Assembly (NCBI GenBank): GCA_044356305.1
Contig: JBIKWM010000001.1
Span: forward strand, 259,509 to 323,508
Length of the DNA stretch: 64,000 nt
Direction of reading: 5' to 3'
Origin: Flavobacteriales bacterium
GTDB taxonomy: Bacteria; Bacteroidota; Bacteroidia; UBA10329
Shown: positions 4,384 to 56,044 of the stretch, in pieces
How positions within the stretch are numbered: position 1 is the stretch's first letter
How the letters are laid out: each line of letters starts with the position of its first letter
Notes under the pieces: model-generated
What the model was told of the DNA's origin: nothing
Database searches by the model: none
The model's input: the letters and a program-made list of their open reading frames with translations, nothing else
Position numbers and translations under genes: made by a program

Positions 4384-5094
4384 TCAATTGTTCGGTGCTC
4401 CGGCATTCACCCATTTTGCAATCTTGGCCCGCAAACAGGTATCGAGCTGAGCCTGCCCTTGAGGCATGGCCGAATAGGGCGAGTCGTGGTTGAGTGCGCC
4501 CATGAGGCGCCCATCGAGAGCCACGGCCGAGGCGCCCGAATGTGCACTCAGGTCTATACTGCCACTGGGGAATGCTCCAGAATGGCAGCCAAGGCAATAC
4601 GTTGAGAATATGGGGGCCACGGTGCCGCTAAAGGTCACATTTACAGTATCGCAACCACTGCCGCTATCAATACACTGGTTGTTGTGTGCCCCTTGGGCTA
4701 TCCAATCATAGATCATGTCAATCTGAGCCTGTGTCAGTGTGATGCCTGATGAGGGCGGTGGCATCTGGTCGTCAGGATCAGAGTCGGTGATCCGCTCAAA
4801 TATCTTGCTGCTGCCCGGGTCACCTGCATCAATGCCGTCCATGATCCCTTCATACGAATCGAGCGTGAAACCCTCTGTATGTGTGGCAGCATCGTGGCAG
4901 CCATACATGGCGCAGCTGCTTACAAAAAGCGGAAGGATGTCATTGACAAAATACACCGTGTTGGTGTCGCACACCGAGTCGGTGGTGAGTTCTTCACTCG
5001 GTGTGGGGATCTCGTGTTTGCAGCTTGCAGTTCCAAAGGCCACGGCCAGTATGAGTAGGAAAGCGGGGTATATCAGTTTCTGTCTCATGTTCAT
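4384..5094 (-). CDS. lipoprotein with two heme-binding-like modules (CX4CH and CxxCH)
   Basis: 236 aa with a lipobox (GTASC). It is an internal duplication of the module seen in 4014..4379. Motifs are CAMYGCH and CLGCH, and both halves end in WI/WV..GA.NN. Confidence 0.6.
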   Translation of the reverse strand: MNMRQKLIYPAFLLILAVAFGTASCKHEIPTPSEELTTDSVCDTNTVYFVNDILPLFVSSCAMYGCHDAATHTEGFTLDSYEGIMDGIDAGDPGSSKIFERITDSDPDDQMPPPSSGITLTQAQIDMIYDWIAQGAHNNQCIDSGSGCDTVNVTFSGTVAPIFSTYCLGCHSGAFPSGSIDLSAHSGASAVALDGRLMGALNHDSPYSAMPQGQAQLDTCLRAKIAKWVNAGAPNN

Positions 5095-5522
5095 TGCAGA
5101 ATAAGGCAGTCCATCATCACAACGCTCCCAAAGAGGTCGTCAACCCCTGTGCAGCGACACTTTAGGCGGGCAGAGGCTCCGACCGGGGCCTTGGCTGCAT
5201 CCTGCCCTGCCTTGAGGCTGGCCTGCACGCCACCGCCCATGCTGCCCTCGGCTGCAAGTATGACCATGGTGGTGGTGTCGCTCGTTGCTTCTGCCGATTC
5301 GACCATGCCGCGCACCTCAAGCACCTTGCCCAGGTACTCACGGTTGGCTTTGGCCGTGTCCGTGCTAAAAACGGTGTACACCTCGTCAGAGGTCACCGTG
5401 GCCGTGGCCTCCAGTTCAGCTATATCGACATTGGTGCGGTTGTACTCGTTATAGGCGTAATACCCGCCACCGACCCCGGCAATGACCAGGACCACGAGCA
5501 TGGCGATCAGTTTGTTACTCAA
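5091..5522 (-). CDS. membrane-anchored OB-fold-like protein (tRNA_anti-like family)
   Basis: 143 aa with an N-terminal TM helix, then YLGKVLEVRGMV typical of this family. Its stop overlaps the next gene's start (ATGA). Confidence 0.45.
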   Translation of the reverse strand: MSNKLIAMLVVLVIAGVGGGYYAYNEYNRTNVDIAELEATATVTSDEVYTVFSTDTAKANREYLGKVLEVRGMVESAEATSDTTTMVILAAEGSMGGGVQASLKAGQDAAKAPVGASARLKCRCTGVDDLFGSVVMMDCLILQ

Positions 5523-5560
5523 AATGATGGATGGTTAGGCATTAATGGGCCCAAATGTAA

Positions 5561-5588
5561 ACGGGCACCGACTTTAACCGGTGCCCGT
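5561..5588 (-). terminator. hairpin downstream of the DUF2795 gene
   Basis: ACGGGCACCG / CGGTGCCCGT forms a 10-bp stem. On the minus strand it is followed by TTTACATTT, which is only a partial T-tract. Confidence 0.4.
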
Positions 5589-5622
5589 CACTAAATCGTG
5601 CTATTCTATCCAAAAATTTCGG

Positions 5623-5844
5623 TCAATACTCATCTTCATTGAAGAAGAAATCCTCTTTGGAAGGATAATCAGGCCAGATGTCTTCAATGGTCTCATACAC
5701 TTCGCCCTCGTCCTCTATCTCTTGCAGGTTCTCAATCACCTCCATGGGTGCACCGGAGCGCATGGCAAAATCAATCAGCTCGTCCTTGGTAGCGGGCCAT
5801 GGGGCATCTTCGAGGTGCTTGGCGAGTTCGAGGGTCCAATACAT
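5623..5844 (-). CDS. DUF2795 domain protein
   Basis: 73 aa with WPATKDELIDFAMRSGAPMEVIENLQ, which matches the DUF2795 pattern. Confidence 0.75.
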   Translation of the reverse strand: MYWTLELAKHLEDAPWPATKDELIDFAMRSGAPMEVIENLQEIEDEGEVYETIEDIWPDYPSKEDFFFNEDEY

Positions 5845-5980
5845 GGTTCGTGCCTTTTATCTGTTTGTTCAAAGAGAGAAGTCTAACTGAGCCCTCTGCG
5901 TTTCGATGCGCGAAAGTAAAATTTTGGGCACAACATGCACCTTTTGCCAAAAATATCTTGAAATCAAAGTAATGGGACCC

Positions 5981-6529
5981 TTAACCTCTTGGTCGCCAAG
6001 CTGTTTCAGCTATTCCGTTTCGGTGTCCTACATATCGGGCCAATACGAACAGATGGTCAGACAGGCGGTTGAGGTAATGAATCACCTCCTGTGGGACGGG
6101 TTCGATCGAGTGCAGATGAACGGCCAACCGCTCGGCCCTTCGGCACACACATCGGGCCATGTGTATGAACGCCACAGTATCATCGCCACCCGGAAGTATG
6201 AAGTTGCGCAGTTCGGGCAGGCTCTCGTTCATCCGGTCTATTTCAGCCTCCAACAGTTGCGTATCGGTGGGCAGCAGGTCAGGTGTCTTCACGTTGTCCT
6301 TGCCCGGTTGGGTGGCCAGGAGGGCCCCAACGGTGAAGAGTCGGTCCTGTACCTCCGCAAGTGTCTGCTGCGCTTTGGTTCCAATATCCCTGAATCGCAC
6401 CAGCCCGACAATCGCATTCAGCTCATCGACTGTTCCATATGCCTCGATGCGCACGTGATGCTTCGGCACACGCGCACCGCCCAGCAGGGCCGTGGTGCCA
6501 TCGTCTCCGGTGCGGGTATAAATCTTCAT
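5981..6529 (-). CDS. pduO: PduO-type ATP:cob(I)alamin adenosyltransferase
   Basis: 182 aa with the signature N-terminus [18 protein letters not shown]. Confidence 0.85.
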
Positions 6530-7245
6530 TGGGCCAGTGCCTGAGCGTAGGTGCGCACGTTGGGGTTGGGGCTGTCGCTCTCTATCAGACCATCGCGCAG
6601 GCGGATGATCCTGTGTGCGTGCTGTGCTATGTCCTCCTCGTGAGTCACAAGGATCACCGAGTTTCCGTTGCGGTGAATCTCCTCAAACAGCCCCATGATC
6701 TCGATGCTGGTCTTGGTGTCGAGGTTTCCGGTAGGTTCATCGGCCAAGATGATGGACGGATGGTTTACCAATGCGCGGGCCACAGCCACGCGCTGGCGCT
6801 GACCGCCCGAAAGTTCGTTGGGGCGGTGCATCATGCGGTCGGCCAGGCCAACTTGCCCCAATACCTCTTTGCCTCGCTTTTCGCGGTCGGCCTTGCTCAG
6901 GCCTGCGTAGATCAACGGCAGGCATACATTGTCCAGAGCGGTGTAGCGCGGCAGCAGGTTGAAGGTCTGGAACACGAACCCTATCTCCTTGTTGCGCACC
7001 TCAGCCAGCTCGTTGTCGGTCATCCGGCTCACATCCTTGCTGTTAAGCACATAGGTGCCTGTGGTGGGCGAATCGAGGCAACCGATGATGTTCATCAGGG
7101 TGGACTTACCCGAACCTGAAGGCCCCATAAGCGCCACATACTCGTTGCGGCCTATGTTCATGGTAATGTCTCGTAGGGCATGTACCGTCTCGCTTCCCAT
7201 CTGGTAAACCTTCGATAGGTGTTCGGTGCTGATAACGGGATGCAT
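6526..7245 (-). CDS. ABC transporter ATP-binding protein (MacB/LolD-like)
   Basis: Walker [13 protein letters not shown] signature [15 protein letters not shown] and Walker [12 protein letters not shown]. Confidence 0.9.
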
Positions 7246-7262
7246 GGCCGCAATTTAGGGGT

Positions 7263-8051
7263 TCAGTACCTGACAGTGAAGTGTTCCTTTGCCTGCCCGG
7301 AGCGGAATGAAACAATGCCGATCTGAAAAAGATCGATGGTCACGCTCACTTTCGGATGCGCCTTGATGTTCTCCCATGCCTGTGTCATGTCGGGAGTCCA
7401 ATAGATGTCGTCAAACACAAGGATGGTACCGGGGTGGGCGTGCTCCAGAAACCATTCAAAGTAGCGAAGGGTGGGCTCCGAGCGGTGATTGCCATCAACA
7501 AAGGCCCAATCTAAACGACCGATCGCGCTGAGGATATCCGGAAGCACATCATCGAACGGACCGGTGTGCTGAATGATGTTTCCGGTGCCGGCATTTTGCA
7601 GATACTCTGCGGCTTTTGCGGCAGTATTGGGGCACCCTTCTATGGTGATCAATCTTCCGTTCTCATTTCCTGTGGCCTGATATAGTGCGCTAACTCCCAA
7701 TGAGGTGCCCAGTTCAACCATGTTAGCAGGTCTGAAATGTGCCACAAGCCTATGCAACAACTCACCATACCGAGGCTGTTTGGCGCTGCCACGGGCCAAT
7801 TGGGCTACGGTGCGGCTCTTGTGCGGGTCAATGAGCGAACCGGCACCGAGGTCGGTTATCTGCACAAGACTGGTGTCTTTTTCCAATTCGGACCTGTATG
7901 CCTTCACCCGCGCATAGGCCGGACGGTCGATCCGGTCATAGATCACCTTATCAATCAGCTCATAGACAAATGGCGAGTGCACCCCGTGCCTCGTCTTGGC
8001 CCGCCACATGTACCGCGCAAACTGCTGTGCTCTATATAGTGCCGGGTGCAT
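7263..8051 (-). CDS. class I SAM-dependent O-methyltransferase-like protein
   Basis: VELGTSLGVSALY (SAM-binding glycine loop) and FVDGNH. The start is taken at the internal ATG 8051 (MHPALYRAQQF...). Confidence 0.65.
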   Translation of the reverse strand: MHPALYRAQQFARYMWRAKTRHGVHSPFVYELIDKVIYDRIDRPAYARVKAYRSELEKDTSLVQITDLGAGSLIDPHKSRTVAQLARGSAKQPRYGELLHRLVAHFRPANMVELGTSLGVSALYQATGNENGRLITIEGCPNTAAKAAEYLQNAGTGNIIQHTGPFDDVLPDILSAIGRLDWAFVDGNHRSEPTLRYFEWFLEHAHPGTILVFDDIYWTPDMTQAWENIKAHPKVSVTIDLFQIGIVSFRSGQAKEHFTVRY

Positions 8052-8123
8052 GGCGGGCAAAAGTAGGCCCGGCCACCGCGAGGCGACCGGGCCTTGAAGC
8101 AAAGCTATTCAGATAGTGACCGG

Positions 8124-9242
8124 TCAGTTCCGGATCAGGTGACCGTTGGCGGCAGGTGTGCCATCGGCCTTTGCAAGGCGGTAGATGTAGGTGCCTGCGC
8201 GCAGGTCGCTGATGTCGATGCGTTCGCCATCAACGTTGACAGCCGTGGTAAGCACGGTACGACCGCTCAGGTCAGAAACGGTGAGCATCAGTTGGTCGCC
8301 ACCGGTGCGTACACTGATGAATTCGGTGGCAGGGTTCGGGTACACCAGCACATTTCCGCTATTGATCAGCTCTTCTACGCCTGTGCAGCACTCCGATGGA
8401 TCGCTCAGAAACAGGGCACTGATGGGGGCATTGGTCACCTGATCAACCTCTATCTCGGTAACGATGTAGCCCATGCTCTTGCTAAGGAAGCGCATCAGGC
8501 GCTTATCGCTCACGTTCGGGTTGGCTATCACACCTGGAATGTTGGGAACAATGGTCCAAGTACCGTTAACGAGTCCCCAAGCGGTATCGATGCTCACCTC
8601 GTGGGTGTTCATGCGCAGAACCTGATGGGAATTTCCCAACACATCGGTAAGTGTGCCGAACGCATCGATGGTGGCTGTGCTGGTGATGTTGCGCTTGAAA
8701 CGGATGCTGTCCGGATTGAAGATCAGGTTGTAGGGAGAAGGAACCAGACCTACAGAGTAGATGGCAGTGTCGAACATGGCCACATCGCTGAAGCTGGTGT
8801 TGTACGTGGCCGGGAACTGGAAGATCTTCCAGGGGTCATCGGCCGTTACACCCATGCTCAGGGGAATCGGGCCCGACCCACCCCCAAAATCCACACTGAT
8901 GCCGATGATGGTCACATCGCCACCGGCCAGATCAGCGAAAGCGTATCCGCCACCCTGATTAAAGGCTATATCGGAGGTAGGGAACAGCGCACCGAACGGA
9001 ACCACGCTGCCAGGAGTCGTGAAACTGAGGCTGTAAAGCGTGTCGGTCTCCAGGTTTGAGAAGTCCCAGGTCTGGGCGGTGGCACTGGCGGTGCCTACGT
9101 TGGTTCCCACGGGCACTTCGGCATCGCTGCCCATGAAGAATGACTCGCCCGCTACAGGGAAATCGGCCTGGTCAATTATTACTTGGGCATTGAGGCCAAG
9201 TGTGGCAAGCACAGATGCGACAAGGGTAAAGGTCTTTTTCAT
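8124..9242 (-). CDS. secreted protein with T9SS C-terminal sorting domain
   Basis: Signal peptide, and a C-terminus VLVYPNPATEFISV...GTYIYRLAKADG typical of the T9SS sorting domain (CTD). Confidence 0.8.
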   Translation of the reverse strand: MKKTFTLVASVLATLGLNAQVIIDQADFPVAGESFFMGSDAEVPVGTNVGTASATAQTWDFSNLETDTLYSLSFTTPGSVVPFGALFPTSDIAFNQGGGYAFADLAGGDVTIIGISVDFGGGSGPIPLSMGVTADDPWKIFQFPATYNTSFSDVAMFDTAIYSVGLVPSPYNLIFNPDSIRFKRNITSTATIDAFGTLTDVLGNSHQVLRMNTHEVSIDTAWGLVNGTWTIVPNIPGVIANPNVSDKRLMRFLSKSMGYIVTEIEVDQVTNAPISALFLSDPSECCTGVEELINSGNVLVYPNPATEFISVRTGGDQLMLTVSDLSGRTVLTTAVNVDGERIDISDLRAGTYIYRLAKADGTPAANGHLIRN

Positions 9243-47176: not shown

Positions 47177-48724
47177 TTATTCGATGCCCAACAGCCTATG
47201 GTGGGCCTTCTCCAAGTACAGGTCGAACATGGGACGGCCAGTGCACCTGTGCAGCAGCCACAGACAGTACTCATCGGTGCCGGGCACTCCCCTGTGTGTG
47301 CGTGCCCATTCGGCAAGTTCGGTCTGGGCCAGATGCAACTGTTGCTCCTTTTCGGCCCCGCGGGCATGTTCAGCCAATTGGGGCAACTGTGCCATGACCA
47401 GTGCGGTGAGGGCATCAGCCTTGGGGTACTGGGCCAGTTTTTTGCGCAACCGCTTCATATCCTCTGACTCCATCAGGCCCTTGTCGAAATCCATAAGTGC
47501 GATGACCAGCGTGGCCATGTACATGGCCTCTGGCCGTGACAGGCGGTGCGGCCCGTCCATGACATCGAGCAGTATGCGCCTGGCAGTGCGCCTGTCGTCC
47601 ATGAGCCATGCGTGCATACCCAGGTTGCTCTTCATGGCCATGATAAAGCTGGGGGGCAGGTGTTTCTCGAAACGTTCCAGTTCCCTCAGAAGCCGCGGCC
47701 TGTCGGCAGTGATGCCATCAAAGTCGTTGGTTTTCAACCTGTGCAGCAGGTAAGTCCTCTCGATGGCGCGGAACATATCCGCTTTCAGAGCCCCTGTATT
47801 GAGCGCTTTGTGATCGAAACGGGGCCGAAGCTCAGACCACTTCTCAGAATGGCCTAAGGTCAAGTAATAGGAGAGGGCATTGCTGACCGCACTTACATAC
47901 ACCTGTGGCATGTGCTGCACCATCTCAGGGTGGAGGTCCCATAGGCGAATGTGCTGCTCGGAGAACTTTAAGGCCAACGGCACATTGCCCAACCAGCGAT
48001 GATACATTGAAAGGAAGGTCAACCTGTATGACCGGGCCTTGAAGCTCATGTCGGTCCTTTCATCGTTGAGCAGCCGATGCTCTGACATCTCTTTGGCCCT
48101 GACCATGGCCGGGGTGCCCTCAATGGGCTGGCCGCCACGACTTATACTGAGCATCTCATCCGCCAGCATGCGCAACTCAGCCACCGCGCTCAAAGTACCT
48201 AGTGCCGCCCTGATGGCTGACCGGTTGTCCTCCTGTTCCTTCTGTGTGCCCGCTATGTCTTTCAGTACAATGCGCTCCATGTCCAAGCACTCCAGTACTA
48301 ACGTGTGGTCGCACGCATCGGTGGCCCTGCGTTGAGCCTTGTGGAACCAGTCCAGGCTCTGATGCAAATGTCCACAATGCCTAAGGAGCAAGGCTATCTC
48401 GAGTTCTCTGCGCAGTCCCCGGCCGATGGTACTCGGGTCCTCAGCCTCAATGAGCGCATCGCAAACCATTTTGAAGAGCTGATGTCGGTTCTGTGGCAAG
48501 CGCGCCCGGTATGCAAGACTCAGCCCATCGCATTGGTCTATCTGATCAGGGCCGCATCTGTACAGGTGGGATAAGAGTCTGAAATGGTCAGGGCTTGGAA
48601 CAGGCCTCTTGGTGCGCAGGGCCTTTACCATCTTGGCGTAAGTATCAGAATTGAGGCCTGATACCAGTTCGTACAAAAAAGTTGGGTCTCTGCGCATCGA
48701 ACAACGGGCCGCTATTATACGCAT
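47177..48724 (-). CDS. hypothetical all-alpha (TPR-like) protein, no NTPase or DNA-binding motif seen
   Basis: About 515 aa, helical and rich in Leu/Arg/Glu. No Walker motifs. It is the first gene of the accessory island and is divergent from the 140-aa gene. Confidence 0.6.
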   Translation of the reverse strand: MRIIAARCSMRRDPTFLYELVSGLNSDTYAKMVKALRTKRPVPSPDHFRLLSHLYRCGPDQIDQCDGLSLAYRARLPQNRHQLFKMVCDALIEAEDPSTIGRGLRRELEIALLLRHCGHLHQSLDWFHKAQRRATDACDHTLVLECLDMERIVLKDIAGTQKEQEDNRSAIRAALGTLSAVAELRMLADEMLSISRGGQPIEGTPAMVRAKEMSEHRLLNDERTDMSFKARSYRLTFLSMYHRWLGNVPLALKFSEQHIRLWDLHPEMVQHMPQVYVSAVSNALSYYLTLGHSEKWSELRPRFDHKALNTGALKADMFRAIERTYLLHRLKTNDFDGITADRPRLLRELERFEKHLPPSFIMAMKSNLGMHAWLMDDRRTARRILLDVMDGPHRLSRPEAMYMATLVIALMDFDKGLMESEDMKRLRKKLAQYPKADALTALVMAQLPQLAEHARGAEKEQQLHLAQTELAEWARTHRGVPGTDEYCLWLLHRCTGRPMFDLYLEKAHHRLLGIE

Positions 48725-48860
48725 CAATGTGCTGCTAAACAATGACTTGAAGTGAGGTGTGTAGCGAATGCAGCAGTTTTTTCATCGAACAACGGAGAAA
48801 AATTGATTTGTTCATCAATGGGCAATGTGGGACGTTTGACCTCGAAACCGAGTAACCACC

Positions 48861-49283
48861 ATGTACACATTCACAGCCACTCACAGCTACAGCCTCAGCG
48901 GGCACGTAATCTCATTTGATAAGAGCGGGATAACCGTAAAGACCACCGGGGGCACGGTGGTGGACTCGCGGACGTACGGCTCAATCTTCAACATCAAGGT
49001 GATCGGTTCCGACTTCTGTTTCGGCACCCTCACGCTCGATGCCAACATCTTCGTAAAACGGATGAACTGGGCGAAGGCCTCAACAGCCGCCTCTTTTAAC
49101 ACCTCAACAACCACCTTCATCTGGCTTGATGAAGATGATGCAGGCGGCATCGTCAGCCACACCTACAACATCAGCAGCTGCCCGCTGCGGTTCACCGCGC
49201 CTGCGAAGAACAAAGTGGATATCACCTGCCCGTGCACCACCGGCTCACCGCCCTGTGGCAACACTTGCTACGCTGCAAGCTGA
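48861..49283 (+). CDS. hypothetical beta-rich protein with Cys-rich C-terminus
   Basis: 140 aa with no signal peptide. The C-terminus is SSCPLRFTAPAKNKVDITCPCTTGSPPCGNTCYAAS. Confidence 0.55.
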   Translation: MYTFTATHSYSLSGHVISFDKSGITVKTTGGTVVDSRTYGSIFNIKVIGSDFCFGTLTLDANIFVKRMNWAKASTAASFNTSTTTFIWLDEDDAGGIVSHTYNISSCPLRFTAPAKNKVDITCPCTTGSPPCGNTCYAAS

Positions 49284-49303
49284 TACCTGACCCACGGCCC
49301 AAA

Positions 49304-49379
49304 CCCCCGCCCCGTTGACTGCCATAGACCAAATAATGGTCATATCATCCGGGACAAACAACTGCACGAGGGGCGGGGG
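49304..49379. repeat. 10-bp all-GC inverted repeat enclosing a 56-nt loop
   Basis: CCCCCGCCCC (49304-49313) pairs with GGGGCGGGGG (49370-49379). The loop holds an inner palindrome GACCAAATAATGGTC. Confidence 0.7.
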
Positions 49380-49391
49380 ACGGGCAAGTGG

Positions 49392-49489
49392 GATTGACGA
49401 TTGCTGATTGCGGATTGCGGATTGACGAGGGATGATAGCTGATTGCTCGTTGACGATTGCGGATTGACGATTGCTGATGGATGATTGAG
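49392..49489. repeat. heptanucleotide tandem array, 14 units, consensus GATTGCN
   Basis: Units stay in exact 7-nt phase from 49392: gattgac gattgct gattgcg gattgcg gattgac gagggat gatagct gattgct cgttgac gattgcg gattgac gattgct gatggat gattgag. Confidence 0.9.
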
Positions 49490-49535
49490 ACGGCAGAGGG
49501 TGAGGCAGGAGGAAAGGGCCTTTAATAGAGACGAA

Positions 49536-49564
49536 CCATACCCCGCAAGTGCGGGGATGAACAG
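49536..49564 (+). repeat. solitary type I-E-like CRISPR repeat
   Basis: CCATACCCCGCAAGTGCGGGGATGAACAG. The stem CCCCGC/GCGGGG and the 3' ATGAAC-G tail match recalled I-E repeats (E. coli GAGTTCCCCGCGCCAGCGGGGATAAACCG, and the P. aeruginosa I-E ending ...GGGGATGAACCG). No second copy occurs at CRISPR spacing. Confidence 0.5.
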
Positions 49565-49748
49565 CGGAAGCCGAAAAGCTGGGAGAGAGTAGGCGGGGAA
49601 TAAATTCAACTATTTCATGAAACTCTCAAGATTGCTTCATTCACAAGGCTATGATCTCATTGACGGTCCGGTTCGGGGCCATAAGCTATAGGCAGTCTGG
49701 CGAAAAAAGGAGACTGATGAGATTGAATACTTTGAGCACCTGACCAAA

Positions 49749-50318
49749 ATGTTCAACTCGGTTGCAAGTGCACCAGTGAGCGATAAGTCTATTGCCCTTG
49801 ATGTGAACGCCTCAAGTGTCGAGGAGTACGGTTTTGAGGTTGGAGTGACTGTGCTGGAAGGCCTGCTGAGCAGCCTGAACCTTGGAGAGCTTGGCATTAA
49901 AGCGAAGATTGGCTCGTTCAAATCTATGAGCACCAGCTATTCGAAAGCTACGGTGGATGAAGTGCCGGCAGCACGCAGTATTCAATATCTCATGCAAGCT
50001 GATCTGGCGGCATATCCACCAGCAATCCGAACTCAGCTCAACAATGACCGCTTCATCCTGATATCGGGTATTATGTATGGTGAGGGTCTTAAGGTCTCCA
50101 TTGAAACAAAGGTGGACATTAGTGCAGAGGTGATTGTTGAGCTCAATCAAATTGCTGAAGGGAAATTGAATTTCACCATGAGCACTGCAAGGAGCCTAAC
50201 CATGAATGCTGAACCTGACCAGATTGTCCCGATTGCGGTCAAGGCCCACCGCATGTTATTCAATCGAAATGAACTCAGAGACTTAAGGTTAGTCACTGAT
50301 AACAGAAATTTCTTTTAA
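49749..50318 (+). CDS. gasdermin-like (bGSDM-like) protein; frame extends upstream to ATG 49617 through an in-frame TAG at 49689
   Basis: The 189-aa ORF plus its in-frame upstream 24 codons (MKLSRLLHSQGYDLIDGPVRGHKL-TAG-AVWRKKETDEIEYFEHLTK) gives 233 codons. The N-terminal GYDLIxxP motif and the beta-rich pattern (DRFILISGIMYGEGLKVSIE; IVPIAVKAHRMLF) resemble bacterial gasdermins as I recall them. This gene is AT-richer than the patatin gene. Confidence 0.5.
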   Translation: MFNSVASAPVSDKSIALDVNASSVEEYGFEVGVTVLEGLLSSLNLGELGIKAKIGSFKSMSTSYSKATVDEVPAARSIQYLMQADLAAYPPAIRTQLNNDRFILISGIMYGEGLKVSIETKVDISAEVIVELNQIAEGKLNFTMSTARSLTMNAEPDQIVPIAVKAHRMLFNRNELRDLRLVTDNRNFF

Positions 50319-50333
50319 TCAGCTGACCCCCCC

Positions 50334-51335
50334 ATGCCCAAGATCAGAATCCTTTCCATTGACGGTGGCGGCATACGCGGCATCATACCCGGCACCATAC
50401 TGGCCGAGGTGGAGGCACGCATTCAGGCCAAGATGGGCAAGGATGCCCGTCTGGCCGACCATGTGGACCTGGTGGCGGGCACGAGCACAGGGGGCATCAT
50501 AACGTGTGGCATGTTGCTGCCGGGGGCCCAAGGCAGGGCCCGCTACAGCATGCAGGAGGTGGTGAACCTGTATCACGAACGGGGCGCGGACATCTTCAAC
50601 CGGTCGGCCATGCACAAGCTGCGCACGCTGGGCGGCATTGCCGATGAGAAGTACCAGGCCGATGGGCTGGAGCGGGCGCTGGAGGACAAGTTCGGTGACA
50701 TCCGCCTGAACGAGCTGCTGCGGCCCTGCATCATAACGGCCTACGACATTGAGAGGCGCGAAACGGTGTTCTTCGGGCAGCACAAGGCCGCCACCGACCC
50801 TGCCCGCAACTATCTGGTGCGCAGGGTGGCAAGGGCCACCTCGGCCGCGCCCACCTATTTTGAGGCGGCCCTCACGGCCTCTATCACCGGGGCTGCGCGG
50901 CCACTGATAGACGGTGGTGTGTTTGCCAACAACCCCGCCATGTGCGCCTATGCCGAGGCACGGTCGCTGGCAGCGTTGGGCCACCCCACCTCAAAGGACA
51001 TGTTCATGCTGAGCATCGGCACGGGCAGTGTGAAGAAGAGCTACCCTTATAAGGAGGCCAAGGACTACGGCCAGCTGGAGTGGGTGAAGCCGGTGATTGA
51101 CATCATGATGAGCGGCAACAGCGAGACGGTGCACTACCAGCTCACCAAGCTGTTCGGGGCACAGGGCAACGATGACGGATATGTGCGCATGGAGCCTGCC
51201 CTGCTGCCCAAGGCCACATCGGACATGGACGATGTGAGCCCCAAGAACCTCCGCGACCTGAAAAAGGCCGCCCGCAACTACATCGATGCCAACTCCGCGC
51301 TGATAGACCGCGTGGTGAATGAACTGACCAATTGA
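50334..51335 (+). CDS. patatin-like phospholipase
   Basis: Oxyanion DGGGIRG, nucleophile GTSTGG (GxSxG) and catalytic Asp DGGVFANNP. It starts 15 nt after the gasdermin-like stop, and a C7 tract abuts the ATG. Confidence 0.9.
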   Translation: MPKIRILSIDGGGIRGIIPGTILAEVEARIQAKMGKDARLADHVDLVAGTSTGGIITCGMLLPGAQGRARYSMQEVVNLYHERGADIFNRSAMHKLRTLGGIADEKYQADGLERALEDKFGDIRLNELLRPCIITAYDIERRETVFFGQHKAATDPARNYLVRRVARATSAAPTYFEAALTASITGAARPLIDGGVFANNPAMCAYAEARSLAALGHPTSKDMFMLSIGTGSVKKSYPYKEAKDYGQLEWVKPVIDIMMSGNSETVHYQLTKLFGAQGNDDGYVRMEPALLPKATSDMDDVSPKNLRDLKKAARNYIDANSALIDRVVNELTN

Positions 51336-51338
51336 CCC

Positions 51339-51387
51339 CCATTCCTAATTCTTAATTCCCAATTCTTAATTCCTAATTTTTAATTCT
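51339..51387. repeat. heptanucleotide tandem array, 7 units, consensus TAATTCY
   Basis: ccattcc taattct taattcc caattct taattcc taatttt taattct, beginning 4 nt after the patatin stop. Confidence 0.85.
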
Positions 51388-51571: not shown

Positions 51572-51580
51572 GCGCCACCC
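51521..51580. repeat. 60-nt direct repeat, copy 1
   Basis: CACAGCCCACCCGCCCCGCGCAGCACCGCCCGGCCCAAAAACAGCCGCTGAGCGCCACCC is identical to 52982..53041 except for one base. Confidence 0.9.
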
Positions 51581-51620
51581 TTTCACTCTCACAATCACTT
51601 TCACTCTCACTTTCACTCAC
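51581..51620. repeat. hexanucleotide array (NNTCAC x6.5)
   Basis: tttcac tctcac aatcac tttcac tctcac tttcac tcac. Confidence 0.8.
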
Positions 51621-51637
51621 TACCAGACCCCACCCCC

Positions 51638-53121: not shown

Positions 53122-53631
53122 ATGGCTAACATAACAGACAACCGACTTAACCTGGTAATGACCGACCCCGAACTGGCCTCGGCCGTACAGCACTTCACTG
53201 ACCTGAAGACTCAGATGCCCTTTCTGGTGGGGCTGGCCTTGGGCGAGAAAAAAGAGATGCAGGGTATCAATGTGAGCAACAAGGCATGGGTAGAGGACTG
53301 CATTATTGAGATGGAGCAGGATCCGTCCATTCTGCCCGGGTTCCTTACTCCGGCCATGGTGACCCGCGACCTAAAGCTGTTCGAGCAGCTTGATGTTGTA
53401 CGGGTCAACGCAGCCGATTTTGCTGCGAAGGTCTCTGACACACAGTTTCTGGCCGGTGCCGAGGCCTACGCGGTATGCCTTATCTACTACAAGATTCTAG
53501 AGGCAGCTGCTAAGGCAGGAATTGCTGGGGCAGCAGAGCGATACAACCGCCTCAAGGCCAGATTTGAGAATCAGGGAGGCACGGGTACCCCGACCACCCC
53601 ACCTTCTGATGGCGAACCACCCGTGGCCTGA
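53122..53631 (+). CDS. hypothetical protein
   Basis: 169 aa and helical, with a Gly/Pro/Thr-rich tail. I recognised no family. Confidence 0.6.
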   Translation: MANITDNRLNLVMTDPELASAVQHFTDLKTQMPFLVGLALGEKKEMQGINVSNKAWVEDCIIEMEQDPSILPGFLTPAMVTRDLKLFEQLDVVRVNAADFAAKVSDTQFLAGAEAYAVCLIYYKILEAAAKAGIAGAAERYNRLKARFENQGGTGTPTTPPSDGEPPVA

Positions 53632-53633
53632 TG

Positions 53634-53885
53634 CCGAAACGGTTCGATTTCAGGCCAAGCCCGTTCAGTCCGGAACCGAACCCGTTCGGTTCCGGACCGA
53701 GTTCGGTCGACCCGGCATTGAACGCGGTCGGCTCAGCGTTGAGCTCGGTCAGTTTTAAACCGAACTCGGCCGACCAGAAATTGAACCCAGTTCGGTTTTT
53801 TACCGAACGCGGTCAATTTGAAACCGAAGTGAGTTCGGTCTTTGGCCGAAGTAGGTTCAATTCAAACCCGAATGCACTTCGGTTT
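53634..53885. repeat. cluster of TTCGG/CCGAA palindromes and hairpins
   Basis: Includes a perfect 13-bp inverted repeat TCCGGAACCGAAC-CC-GTTCGGTTCCGGA (53669-53696) and GACCGA-GT-TCGGTC (53695-53708). Further hairpins are GTTCGGT-T5-ACCGAAC (53790-53808), ACCGAA-gtgag-TTCGGT (53823-53839) and CCGAAGT...ACTTCGG (53845-53882). Confidence 0.85.
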
Positions 53886-53948
53886 TGCACCCCCCTAGTT
53901 CGGTTCTGCACCCCCCTTGTTCGGTTTTCGACCCCCTCTATTCGGTTT
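53886..53948. repeat. three 21-bp tandem repeats (TGCACCCCCCTnGTTCGGTTY), followed by a G10 tract
   Basis: Units are 53886-53906, 53907-53927 and 53928-53948. The G10 lies at 53957-53966 and is complementary to the C-runs. Confidence 0.85.
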
Positions 53949-53995
53949 TGGAGGGTGGGGGGGGGGTCAAACACCCCCCTCTCGAACCGCAAAGT

Positions 53996-54316
53996 ATGCG
54001 ACATTCTGACACACCACCACCAACCACCACAGCCATGACACCCGAAGAGCAGGAGGCCTTTGAGCGCATGAAGGCCAACATCGAACAGTTGAGTCAGCTC
54101 ATCACGCGCGTTGACACCCTGCACCCGCGCACCACACCCACCGAGGCGACCCGGGCCAGCAACCTCACCGATGAGATGCAGCGCTCCATCACCGCTATGA
54201 AGTTCCAGCTCGAGTACATCAGCATCGTGACCCGTCACCTCAACCTACAGGAACAGTTCTTTCCCGCGCCCGGCAGCCCCGTCAAAGCTGCGCACTTTAA
54301 GGTGGGGGAGAATTGA
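53996..54316 (+). CDS. hypothetical small helical protein
   Basis: MRHSDTPPPTTTAMTPEEQEAFERMKANIEQLSQLI... The start could be 53996 or 54035. The ORF-track start at 53885 lies inside the repeats and is unlikely. Confidence 0.5.
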   Translation: MRHSDTPPPTTTAMTPEEQEAFERMKANIEQLSQLITRVDTLHPRTTPTEATRASNLTDEMQRSITAMKFQLEYISIVTRHLNLQEQFFPAPGSPVKAAHFKVGEN

Positions 54317-54452
54317 ATCTTTGACCATCTTTGGAAACACAGACCATTATAGGCGCTAGGGCTTTCTCTTCTTTTAGTGCTGTTGCGAACAGCGAGAAAC
54401 TACTCCCGAACAAGTGGTCCTTCGGAACACTTGCTCGGGCGGGGGGGGTAAC

Positions 54453-55781
54453 ATGGTCATGACTGAATCGGAGCATATAATTCAACAATTCATCAGTCGA
54501 GAATTCCCCTCATTGGCAAAGCGCTACTATGATGAATTTGCCGTAGAGTCAACATATTTATATAAACCTTTAGGAACTGTTATTCAAAACGGTATCAGAT
54601 ACAGTACGTTTGAATTTATAGAACAGTTGGTAAGACTTGAATTCGGCATTCCCTTTGAATTATCTAAATACTTTGATTTTCATGCGCAAGCAATTTTTCG
54701 ATCGCAGCCTATTGACTTCGGATTCACAGCTGTCAACCAATATCCAACTTCCTTTCAAAATCAACAAACACTCGAAGCTCCCTTCAATCTGATCAACTTC
54801 CACCTCTTTGGAGGCCATCCATTTGAAGGTTTATCTGGTCTTTCTTCAAACATCATCAAAGAAAAAGTTAAACAAGACCAAGATTTATACTTCGAGTATA
54901 TTCGACTTCAACTCAAATCACATCTAAAGCGATTTTTTCTATATGGCAGAGTGGAATGGAGATGGGTCATCTTGGACCAATTGGTCCATCACGGAATAGA
55001 TAGGTTTCCAGACTGCCTAAATGGTGAGTTCGATTCTCTAAAATACAGTATGGATTTCTTCTTCCGTTGCGGAAATCTCGGCATCCATAATTCGGGTGTT
55101 CCATACAAGGAAACAGATTGCTACAAATTGGAACTTGAGTTCTATGATAAACTAAAAAGAAAACCTGTTTCAGAGTACACATACACTGATGTCCTAAAAC
55201 AGTACAATCTTAAATGGCAAATATCAAAGTCCCGATCCTCATTAGACAATTCAGGTGTATCGGCCAAATGCGAGGCCTTAGGTGAAGTTCTTCTTGTAGA
55301 TGCCAAGTCGATTCCAACGTGGAACATTTCACCAAGATTTAGCATTGACCTAACCGATGTATTTTACGACCACTCAAGAATTCAGGAAATTTTAGCGACA
55401 TACAACGAACCAGAGAATGCATTGCGACAAATGTTCAATCTTCCCAAAATTGGGGAGGGCTGGATTTCCGAAACCAATTTATACTATCAAATCAAGGAAC
55501 ATTTTAACTCAGAAGTAATCATACAACATGGTAAACCCAATTGGTTGGGTAAACAGCATTTAGATATATGGTTCCCGAAACGCAACATAGGCATTGAATA
55601 TCAGGGCGACCAACATTATTACCCTGTTGCATTTTTCGGTGGCGAAGCCTCTCTTGAAAAGAACAAGGCGCGCGACCAAAGAAAAAAGGAGCTTTGTAAA
55701 GAATTTGGCTGTAGACTAATCTACGTTCTCCCTGATTATGACCTCAATATAGTCATAGGTCAAATCGAGAAATTAATTTGA
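54453..55781 (+). CDS. hypothetical protein, AT-rich, with C-terminal Vsr/DUF559-like (PD-(D/E)xK-type) nuclease-like domain
   Basis: The C-terminus is GKQHLDIWFPKRNIGIEYQGDQHY...KARDQRKKELCKEFGCRLIYV. This pattern (D ... E.xG..H ... D..R...L...G) recalls DUF559/Vsr-type endonuclease domains. I did not recognise the N-terminal ~330 aa. A G8 tract lies 4 nt upstream of ATG 54453. Confidence 0.55.
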   Translation: MVMTESEHIIQQFISREFPSLAKRYYDEFAVESTYLYKPLGTVIQNGIRYSTFEFIEQLVRLEFGIPFELSKYFDFHAQAIFRSQPIDFGFTAVNQYPTSFQNQQTLEAPFNLINFHLFGGHPFEGLSGLSSNIIKEKVKQDQDLYFEYIRLQLKSHLKRFFLYGRVEWRWVILDQLVHHGIDRFPDCLNGEFDSLKYSMDFFFRCGNLGIHNSGVPYKETDCYKLELEFYDKLKRKPVSEYTYTDVLKQYNLKWQISKSRSSLDNSGVSAKCEALGEVLLVDAKSIPTWNISPRFSIDLTDVFYDHSRIQEILATYNEPENALRQMFNLPKIGEGWISETNLYYQIKEHFNSEVIIQHGKPNWLGKQHLDIWFPKRNIGIEYQGDQHYYPVAFFGGEASLEKNKARDQRKKELCKEFGCRLIYVLPDYDLNIVIGQIEKLI

Positions 55782-55782
55782 T

Positions 55783-55949
55783 ACTCCCCTCTCCCGCTCG
55801 CGTGTTTTGTTCGCTCGCGTCCCGCGAGTGAGGATCACTCTGCCTCCCGCATCCTAATAAACACCCCCCTCCCCCGCTCGCGTGCTTTTTTCGCTCGCGT
55901 CTCGCGAGTGAGGATTACTCTGCCTCCGGCATCCTAATAAACACTCCCC
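55783..55949. repeat. 80-nt tandem repeat, two copies plus a partial third
   Basis: CCGCTCGCGTG recurs at 55794 and 55874. Each unit contains the hairpin TCGCTCGCG-n3-CGCGAGTGA and ends in ATCCTAATAAACA. Confidence 0.85.
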
Positions 55950-56044
55950 TTAACCCCCTCAATTGATCATTGCTCATTGTAAAATGCCCCCCCACCCCCT
56001 CTCGCATTCCTCAGTATTCCCCCGTTTCCATTTCCTTTGGGGCA

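Follow-up and report, generated by a model that had tools for sequence, protein, structure and literature searches.

A nonsense-interrupted gasdermin gene from a stand-alone Bacteroidota clade, probably inserted with its RNA leader in front of a resident patatin gene

A gasdermin-like gene and a gene for a patatin-like phospholipase lie side by side in a 64,000-nucleotide (nt) stretch of genomic DNA from an uncultured Flavobacteriales bacterium (assembly GCA_044356305.1, contig JBIKWM010000001.1, positions 259,509–323,508). The whole of this stretch is called the window below, and coordinates are counted from its first letter unless another contig is named. The pair had been proposed, from the sequence of the window, to form a coupled and undescribed module of two membrane-attacking proteins. 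The first frame, from 49617 to 50318 on the forward strand, consists of 233 sense-or-TAG codons followed by TAA. With its single TAG read as Q, it matched the PADLOC profile for bacterial gasdermins (bGSDM; E 1.7e-23, residues 3–227 on profile positions 6–229 of 257) and the NCBIfam model NF051890 prok_gasdermin (105.3 bits, cut-off 100), and Pfam PF26164 Bact_GSDM was recorded for the open reading frame (ORF) of 189 amino acids (aa) that is left after the TAG, as it was for every homologue. Its N-terminal GYDLIDGP is part of a near-invariant family motif, GYDLI[DE]GPVR, and the C-terminal LVTDNRNFF typical of the family is intact (50292–50315). An AlphaFold2 model built from a 25-sequence alignment was beta-rich (pLDDT 85, pTM 0.80), and its best Foldseek matches were the bacterial gasdermin structures 7n51 (E 5e-13, TM 0.72), 7n50 and 7n52 (E 5e-13 to 2e-10), followed lower down by the Vitiosangium pore and by eukaryotic gasdermins. 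Profiles, model and structure matches agree, and the frame is a genuine bacterial gasdermin homologue, as predicted. In the model about 7 residues follow the last predicted strand, fewer than the 17 first assumed. AlphaFold tends toward an inactive-like gasdermin fold with or without the C-terminal domain (PMC10153256), and the model is therefore silent on the activation state of the protein.

The second gene of the pair (50334–51335, forward strand; 333 codons) begins 15 nt past the gasdermin TAA and encodes an intact, CapV-like patatin with the motifs DGGGIRG, GTSTG and DGG, which retain the catalytic Ser-Asp dyad. It was matched by Pfam Patatin (E 1.7e-23) and by the PADLOC phospholipase effector of cyclic-oligonucleotide-based anti-phage signalling systems (CBASS; E 5.6e-73), and scored 193.2 bits against NCBIfam CBASS_lipase NF041079, just under the cut-off of 200. 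The predicted difference in base composition between the two genes was also borne out: the gasdermin gene has 46% GC and a GC content at third codon positions (GC3) of 0.50, compared with 62% and 0.82 for the patatin gene. Likewise in keeping with the original prediction, scans of the window genes between about 43 and 63 kb with Pfam, PADLOC and NCBIfam profiles found no protease and no CD-NTase that could serve as a partner; among peptidases, only a fragment of M28 type was seen, at 63.5 kb. The patatin belongs to a very large family of solitary chromosomal patatins of Bacteroidota, with more than 7,700 relatives retrieved at E <1e-30. The homologues in Indibacter and Draconibacterium adjoin an aldo/keto reductase among housekeeping genes, another in a Flavobacteriales metagenome-assembled genome (MAG) stands in an operon with a GH19 enzyme, and neither a CD-NTase nor a gasdermin lies beside any of these three. 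Judged by these contexts, the patatin homologues are solitary chromosomal genes in housekeeping surroundings. The homologue in the Flavobacteriales MAG (JAIPBM010000013.1, locus L059) is 63% identical to the window patatin and lies in an apparent operon (4776–8822) of genes for an 86-aa protein, a 289-aa protein, the patatin, a GH19 enzyme with a peptidoglycan-binding domain and a 210-aa protein; the operon is headed by a DUF805b-like leader and adjoins a DUF4407 gene, itself preceded by such a leader, and an AIPR gene.

The gasdermin gene carries an RNA leader of its own. A GC-rich hairpin with a predicted CCCCGC/GCGGGG stem (49537–49559, forward strand) is followed directly on its 3' side by a full-length match to the DUF805b RNA motif (49561–49595, forward strand; Rfam RF02914, clan CL00115; 43.4 bits against a gathering threshold of 35.6, E 3.5e-11). 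This is the only Rfam match in the window, and 21 nt separate its end from the gasdermin ATG. The motif comprises a 4-bp stem with the loop GGAAGCCGAAAA, then AGAGUAGG, compared with a clan-wide form of hairpin loop G[GT]AAGCCGAAAA, then AGAGUAGG. The hairpin overlaps a 22-nt element (49541–49562) that had been described as a solitary CRISPR-like repeat. Solitary it is, with a single copy in the window when up to three mismatches are allowed; it is not CRISPR, as it forms a lone GC-rich hairpin 5' of the DUF805b motif, and a CRISPR array at this point was ruled out by the single copy and the absence of an array in Tandem Repeats Finder (TRF).

Searches with a hand-built nhmmer profile and with Rfam's own models placed members of the DUF805/DUF805b clan upstream of the gasdermin gene at seven loci including the window, out of about 47. 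The other six are DUF805 matches at L008 5917–5985 (84.3 bits), L012 5917–5986 (77.7 bits) and L022 5924–5990 (48.4 bits) and DUF805b matches at L007 7951–7985 (34.0 bits), L041 5945–5979 (31.9 bits) and L024 5942–5976 (26.2 bits). The sites found by nhmmer lie 16–26 nt upstream of the gasdermin ATG, and the only other significant nhmmer matches in 787 kb of DNA were at L059 4727–4755 and 8919–8949 (duplicated in L060). A scan of metagenomes with one strict pattern found the motif at ≥120 loci. An ATG-initiated ORF began within 90 nt downstream, mostly after 20–25 nt, in 114 of the 125 instances listed, and the downstream proteins of the listed instances fall into 83 extremely diverse clusters, with no gasdermin among them. 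Genes for bacteriocin-like peptides with a GG leader and for secreted proteins are found behind the metagenomic motif. The 4-bp stem covaries, being fully paired in 80 of 122 listed instances, in 48 distinct stem combinations, against 11% in a partner-shuffled control. On this evidence the DUF805-clan motif looks like a leader or regulon signal that is widespread in Bacteroidota and is carried by a subset of stand-alone gasdermins.

The in-frame TAG of the window gasdermin is codon 25 (49689–49691, forward strand). At this position 88% of the family have Leu, inside the HKPLQLW block of the family alignment, and the surrounding segment, GYDLI[DE]GPVRNHKPLQLW, is the most conserved of the protein. 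The same TAG recurs in 100% identical DNA of the Logan assembly L001 and of JGI contig L057, and the identical 189-aa ORF is called on a third JGI contig (JGI 3300059473), so that a sequencing error can be ruled out. A reassigned TAG or a suppressor tRNA was rejected as well: the stop codons of plausible window genes of at least 150 aa are TGA in 40 cases, TAA in 7 and TAG in 1, no real window gene was found to need read-through of TAG, and no tRNA gene was found in the window. The window gasdermin is also the most divergent member of its family, with changes in 25 of the 76 columns that are ≥85% conserved in the family alignment (family median 3, maximum 24), among them Q26 and G101, both invariant in the rest of the family. 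With the TAG fixed in every assembly seen, we regard the window gasdermin as a pseudogene, and its inactivation looks recent. A second disrupted copy from the same clade was seen in a Draconibacterium MAG (L054 6001–6634), where the match spans residues 1–233 and the open ORF only 152 aa; pseudogenization of stand-alone gasdermins is therefore not unique to the window.

Gene callers report the residual 189-aa ORF that starts at Met45 (49749–50318, forward strand), and the gasdermin might still function alone as the product of re-initiation at this codon, or through occasional read-through of the TAG. The long open frame past the TAG, the perfectly conserved C-terminal motif and the intact DUF805b leader upstream are what would be expected of such a gene. 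However, the re-initiated product would lack 44 residues that contain the best-conserved segment of the family, GYDLI[DE]GPVRNH..QLW (from Vitiosangium residue 11 onward), neither recoding of TAG nor a suppressor tRNA was seen in the window, and residues invariant elsewhere are substituted. We therefore consider continued function unlikely.

Comparison with a sister strain shows that the pair is not shared between close relatives. JGI contig L058 encodes a patatin orthologue (P0103) that is 99% identical in aa sequence to that of the window, and it is collinear with the window at 94–99% nt identity along VitK2-OmpH-UbiA-Maf-OmpA-Exo_endo_phos-QueG-GT2 and again across the patatin gene. The gasdermin gene is absent from it despite the near-identical patatin, which bears out the earlier suspicion that the pairing is recent. 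In blastn alignments L058 9809–9945 corresponds to window 49289–49424, and L058 9996–11039 to window 50329–51366. The first of these ends inside an array of about 14 GATTGNN heptamers (49392–49488; TRF period 7, 13.9 copies), at 49424. Between the array and the patatin ATG, L058 has 50 nt more of heptamers that run straight into 'TGACCCCCATG'; at the same point the window has 904 nt (49425–50328) with the hairpin, the RNA motif and the gasdermin gene, followed by 'TGACCCCCCCATG'. The window-specific segment of 904 nt on the forward strand, delimited by blastn and by its junction sequence, thus stands in place of the 50 nt of heptamer array in L058. Its GC content is 47.6%, compared with about 60% in the flanks, and its foreign part, the leader and the gasdermin gene, probably extends from about 49489 to 50323. 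All relatives of the window gasdermin are at most 44% identical to it, and the taxon-labelled ones are Bacteroidota, mostly from low-GC lineages such as Flavobacterium.

The low GC and GC3 of the segment speak for a gain in the window strain and against a loss from L058; that the segment was inserted is something that we infer from composition. An ancestral pair, with the gasdermin later deleted from the sister strain between two heptamer arrays, is a reading that we consider improbable. The arrays that flank the pair could mediate deletion as well as insertion, but the foreign composition of the segment (GC3 0.50 against 0.82) and the relationship of the gasdermin to distant homologues in low-GC Bacteroidota (≤44% identity) speak against it, and even if it were true, the pairing is conserved nowhere else that we surveyed.

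The second of the arrays that, as originally described, flank the pair is made of 6.7 ATTCNTA units and lies directly after the patatin gene (51341–51387; TRF and repeat search). In L058 the same array is found two genes further downstream than in the window, and the genes downstream of the patatin differ entirely between the two. Tandem heptamer or hexamer arrays (GATTGNN, ATTCNTA, CTTTCA) occur at window 49392–49488, 51341–51387 and 51580–51621 and at L058 9913–9990 and 12428–12457, exactly where the gene contents of the window and L058 diverge, and they appear to act as boundaries, or as substrates of recombination, in the swapping of gene cassettes in the host lineage. On the other side of the gasdermin, genes for a helical-repeat protein of 521 aa (47177–48742, reverse strand) and a Cys-rich protein of 140 aa (48861–49283, forward strand) are hypervariable, being no more than 22% and 29% identical in aa sequence to the positional counterparts in L058 (tblastn; L058 7727–9807), the flanks of which are 94–99% identical in DNA. 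Neither protein had a family match in Pfam, PADLOC, NCBIfam or PHROG scans. Placed beside a conserved patatin, this pair may represent a sensor or immunity locus that is diversifying. From such differences in gene content, the locus is a hotspot more generally. Further into the same island, a low-GC (39%) ORF of 455 aa (window 54414–55781) has a C-terminal domain resembling HNH or homing endonucleases in PHROG matches and is a second compositionally foreign gene. At its right edge the island has an 80-nt tandem repeat (window 55786–55950; 2.1 copies, 91% match), and several 21-nt tandem repeats (window 53660–53950) lie within small ORFs at 53631–54316.

We then surveyed the genomic context of gasdermin homologues in one genome per species of the GTDB, using two peptide patterns, by which divergent relatives may be missed. 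Gasdermin relatives were encoded at 49 loci, all but one labelled as Bacteroidota, the single exception being a Glaciecola record. The genera represented include Flavobacterium, Psychroflexus, Epilithonimonas, Fluviicola, Pontibacter, Ancylomarina and Flammeovirga, together with MAGs of Bacteroidales, Chitinophagaceae and Sphingobacteriaceae. By blastp, none of the 49 loci has a patatin within 6 kb on either side of the gasdermin homologue, and no neighbour is conserved among them beyond local Flavobacterium synteny. ORFs at these loci were called crudely (ATG-initiated, ≥70 aa, greedy selection). The Pfam scan of neighbours covered the genes at positions −1, +1 and +2 of 46 loci, 135 proteins in all, and tabulated the families present at two or more loci; these were Mpo1-like, DUF4494, DUF3754, DUF2199 and miscellaneous housekeeping families, and none of peptidase C14, CHAT, trypsin, subtilase or patatin was among them. 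Homologue contexts annotated individually were likewise without protease or patatin.

Other roles suggested by the neighbourhoods were considered and set aside. Enrichment of the homologues in defence islands was rejected after a PADLOC scan of the 135 neighbours gave only scattered single matches, such as DpdF, PDC-S01/S02 and mads. The gene directly upstream of the stand-alone gasdermin encodes an Amidase_2 protein with SH3_3 in Epilithonimonas (L002 7119–7943) and a GH25 protein in Flavobacterium aestivum (L007 6978–7874), which is suggestive of a lysis pair with a peptidoglycan hydrolase at these two loci but did not recur in the survey of 135 neighbours. A phage-borne, holin-like role for the clade was also rejected, with no relatives in IMG/VR viral contigs and no PHROG match.

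These contexts bear on the proposal that gasdermin and patatin are a functional two-gene module for membrane attack, in defence or abortive infection, that does without a protease or a cyclic-nucleotide trigger. The two genes are co-oriented with a gap of 15 nt, both families act on membranes and the locus is hypervariable between strains in the way of defence hotspots. Against this, the sister strain lacks the pairing, which was seen in this strain lineage only, at 0 of 49 gasdermin-homologue loci and in none of the four patatin-homologue contexts examined; the patatins are solitary, the gasdermin has a fixed nonsense codon and the two genes differ in compositional origin. The comparative data already largely refute such a module, which we consider very improbable. 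Since the contexts of neither gene family show the pairing, the juxtaposition of gasdermin and patatin is best read as an accident of the landing site.

The homologues form a clade of their own, which an HMMER search of 1.84 billion cluster representatives served to delimit. It gave 375 hits in two groups. The strong group comprises 67 hits at E ≤1e-30, in which non-fragments are about 231–240 aa long (two about 262 aa) and align to the last residue; the weaker group (E about 1e-14 to 1e-9) consists of proteins that are mostly, when full-length, about 250–286 aa, with the profile ending 24–34 residues before the C-terminus. By length and alignment, the weaker hits are canonical bGSDMs. The clade itself comprises no fewer than 67 clusters when grouped at 50% identity and about 100 when grouped at 90%, and 89 of 102 family sequences are exactly 233 aa long. 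Against Protein Data Bank (PDB) sequences, clade profile positions 6–219 correspond to residues 11–226 of the 266 of the Vitiosangium bGSDM. The toxic construct of that protein without its C-terminal domain comprises residues 1–237, and bacterial gasdermins have a C-terminal autoinhibitory peptide of about 20–40 aa (PMC10153256). From where the alignment ends relative to the 1–237 construct, the clade proteins end roughly at the cleavage point of characterized bGSDMs and are without the autoinhibitory peptide.

What is left at the C-terminus of clade members is a conserved tail of 7–9 residues. In 49 of the 102 members the final nine residues are identical, LVTDNRNFF, and 100 end in Phe; elsewhere the protein is far less conserved (mean pairwise identity about 37–66%). 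The C-terminal motif might serve as a minimal latch, as a degron or in recognition. No clade member has a Cys in its first 15 residues (0/102), and cysteines are almost absent overall. In the literature that we searched, we found no account of a gasdermin with a patatin, of protease-less bacterial gasdermins or of a gasdermin with a holin or endolysin that covers this clade. The original prediction had allowed for a decayed canonical system, with homologues that always have proteases nearby, but no proteases were near the homologues surveyed; a remnant of a gasdermin-protease operon that lost its protease, which the missing protease and the disrupted gene might suggest, is hardly credible when the whole clade is without adjacent proteases and without the inhibitory peptide that they remove, and when the insert has clean junctions and a length of only about 0.9 kb.

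Together, these observations make it likely that a cassette of leader plus gasdermin was horizontally inserted at the heptamer-array junction before a resident patatin gene and was silenced by a nonsense mutation. The host is an uncultured, high-GC member of the Bacteroidota. The foreign cassette, about 0.85–0.9 kb long, would have brought a 5' leader of DUF805b type together with a 233-aa gasdermin gene of the stand-alone, Bacteroidota-specific clade, and would have entered an intergenic spacer of heptamer repeats, only a few bases before the patatin start codon. The nonsense mutation at codon 25 could have been acquired after arrival or brought along, and would then have become fixed in the population, while the 15-nt gap to the patatin would be a by-product of the insertion point and not a functional coupling. 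We further infer, as distinct from any result above, that silencing was selected since a gasdermin without an inhibitory tail would be toxic when misregulated.

Several observations weigh against this account. Apart from the TAG, the frame stays open through its other 208 codons and ends in an unchanged LVTDNRNFF, the near-invariant C-terminus of the family; any decay must therefore be recent, or else the gene may still yield a truncated product. Divergence alone is no proof of relaxed selection, since a few intact members of the family come close to the window copy in this respect (24 and 22 mismatches). The survey of neighbours was made on crude ORF calls, and its summary table hides families seen once. 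Finally, composition is all that distinguishes a gain in the window strain from a loss in its sister.

Taken with the properties of the clade, insertion and silencing of the cassette can be fitted into a wider reading, which we offer tentatively and which may well prove wrong: the clade would consist of naturally 'pre-cleaved' gasdermins, controlled by their expression or by a minimal FF latch, and the window copy would have been silenced after horizontal transfer. Pore-forming activity would then be held in check at the level of expression, for example by a DUF805/DUF805b-type leader as found at 7 of about 47 loci, or alternatively by the minimal FF latch, to be released by something other than a dedicated protease. 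A host such as that of the window, unable to regulate the transferred gasdermin, would have silenced its copy. The gasdermin-patatin pair itself is most likely a strain-specific accident with a dead gene, not a new defence module. What is of wider interest is the clade, a sizeable and well-conserved set of gasdermins without an inhibitory peptide or a neighbouring protease, part of which carries an RNA leader. If the clade proteins are active pore formers, they would represent protease-independent control of gasdermins in bacteria. This would parallel the cleavage-independent gasdermins of early eukaryotes, and would offer a handle on the role of an orphan, DUF805-type RNA motif.

Among known systems, the closest are the canonical gasdermin-protease systems of Runella, Bradyrhizobium, Vitiosangium and Lysobacter (PDB 7N50–7N52), which have the same fold and belong to the same family as the window gene, and with which it shares a core of twisted beta-sheet and, at the N-terminus, the motif G-Y-x-L/V-x-x-x-P. 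To our knowledge, in all experimentally characterized bacterial gasdermins a C-terminal peptide keeps the protein inactive until a neighbouring protease releases it. Proteases were found next to 43 of 50 bGSDMs, and truncation of the C-terminal peptide led to toxicity (Johnson et al., bioRxiv 10.1101/2021.06.07.447441). In contrast, the clade described here has no adjacent protease, its proteins end approximately at the cleavage site, where canonical relatives carry 24–34 more C-terminal residues, none of its 102 members has the N-terminal cysteine for palmitoylation, and the window copy appears to be a pseudogene.

Short gasdermin-like proteins without a large inhibitory domain or a dedicated protease, as in the clade, are also represented by the Trichoplax gasdermin and Neurospora RCD-1 (PDB 8JYV, 8JYY, 8JYZ). 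Their structures were among the Foldseek matches to our model (ranks 9, 13 and 17–20), with a weak likeness (TM 0.25–0.45). These eukaryotic proteins are activated by disulfide reduction and by heteromeric allorecognition, respectively; unlike them, the bacterial clade is nearly free of cysteines. The window patatin, for its part, resembles CBASS CapV in its strong matches to effector profiles and its intact Ser-Asp dyad, and differs from it in having no CD-NTase in the window or beside its homologues, and in falling short of the NCBIfam cut-off (193.2 bits against 200). The leader corresponds over its full length to the DUF805/DUF805b RNAs (Rfam RF03081/RF02914, clan CL00115), with the covarying hairpin and a position directly upstream of the gasdermin ATG, but the gene that follows it encodes a gasdermin and not a DUF805 protein.

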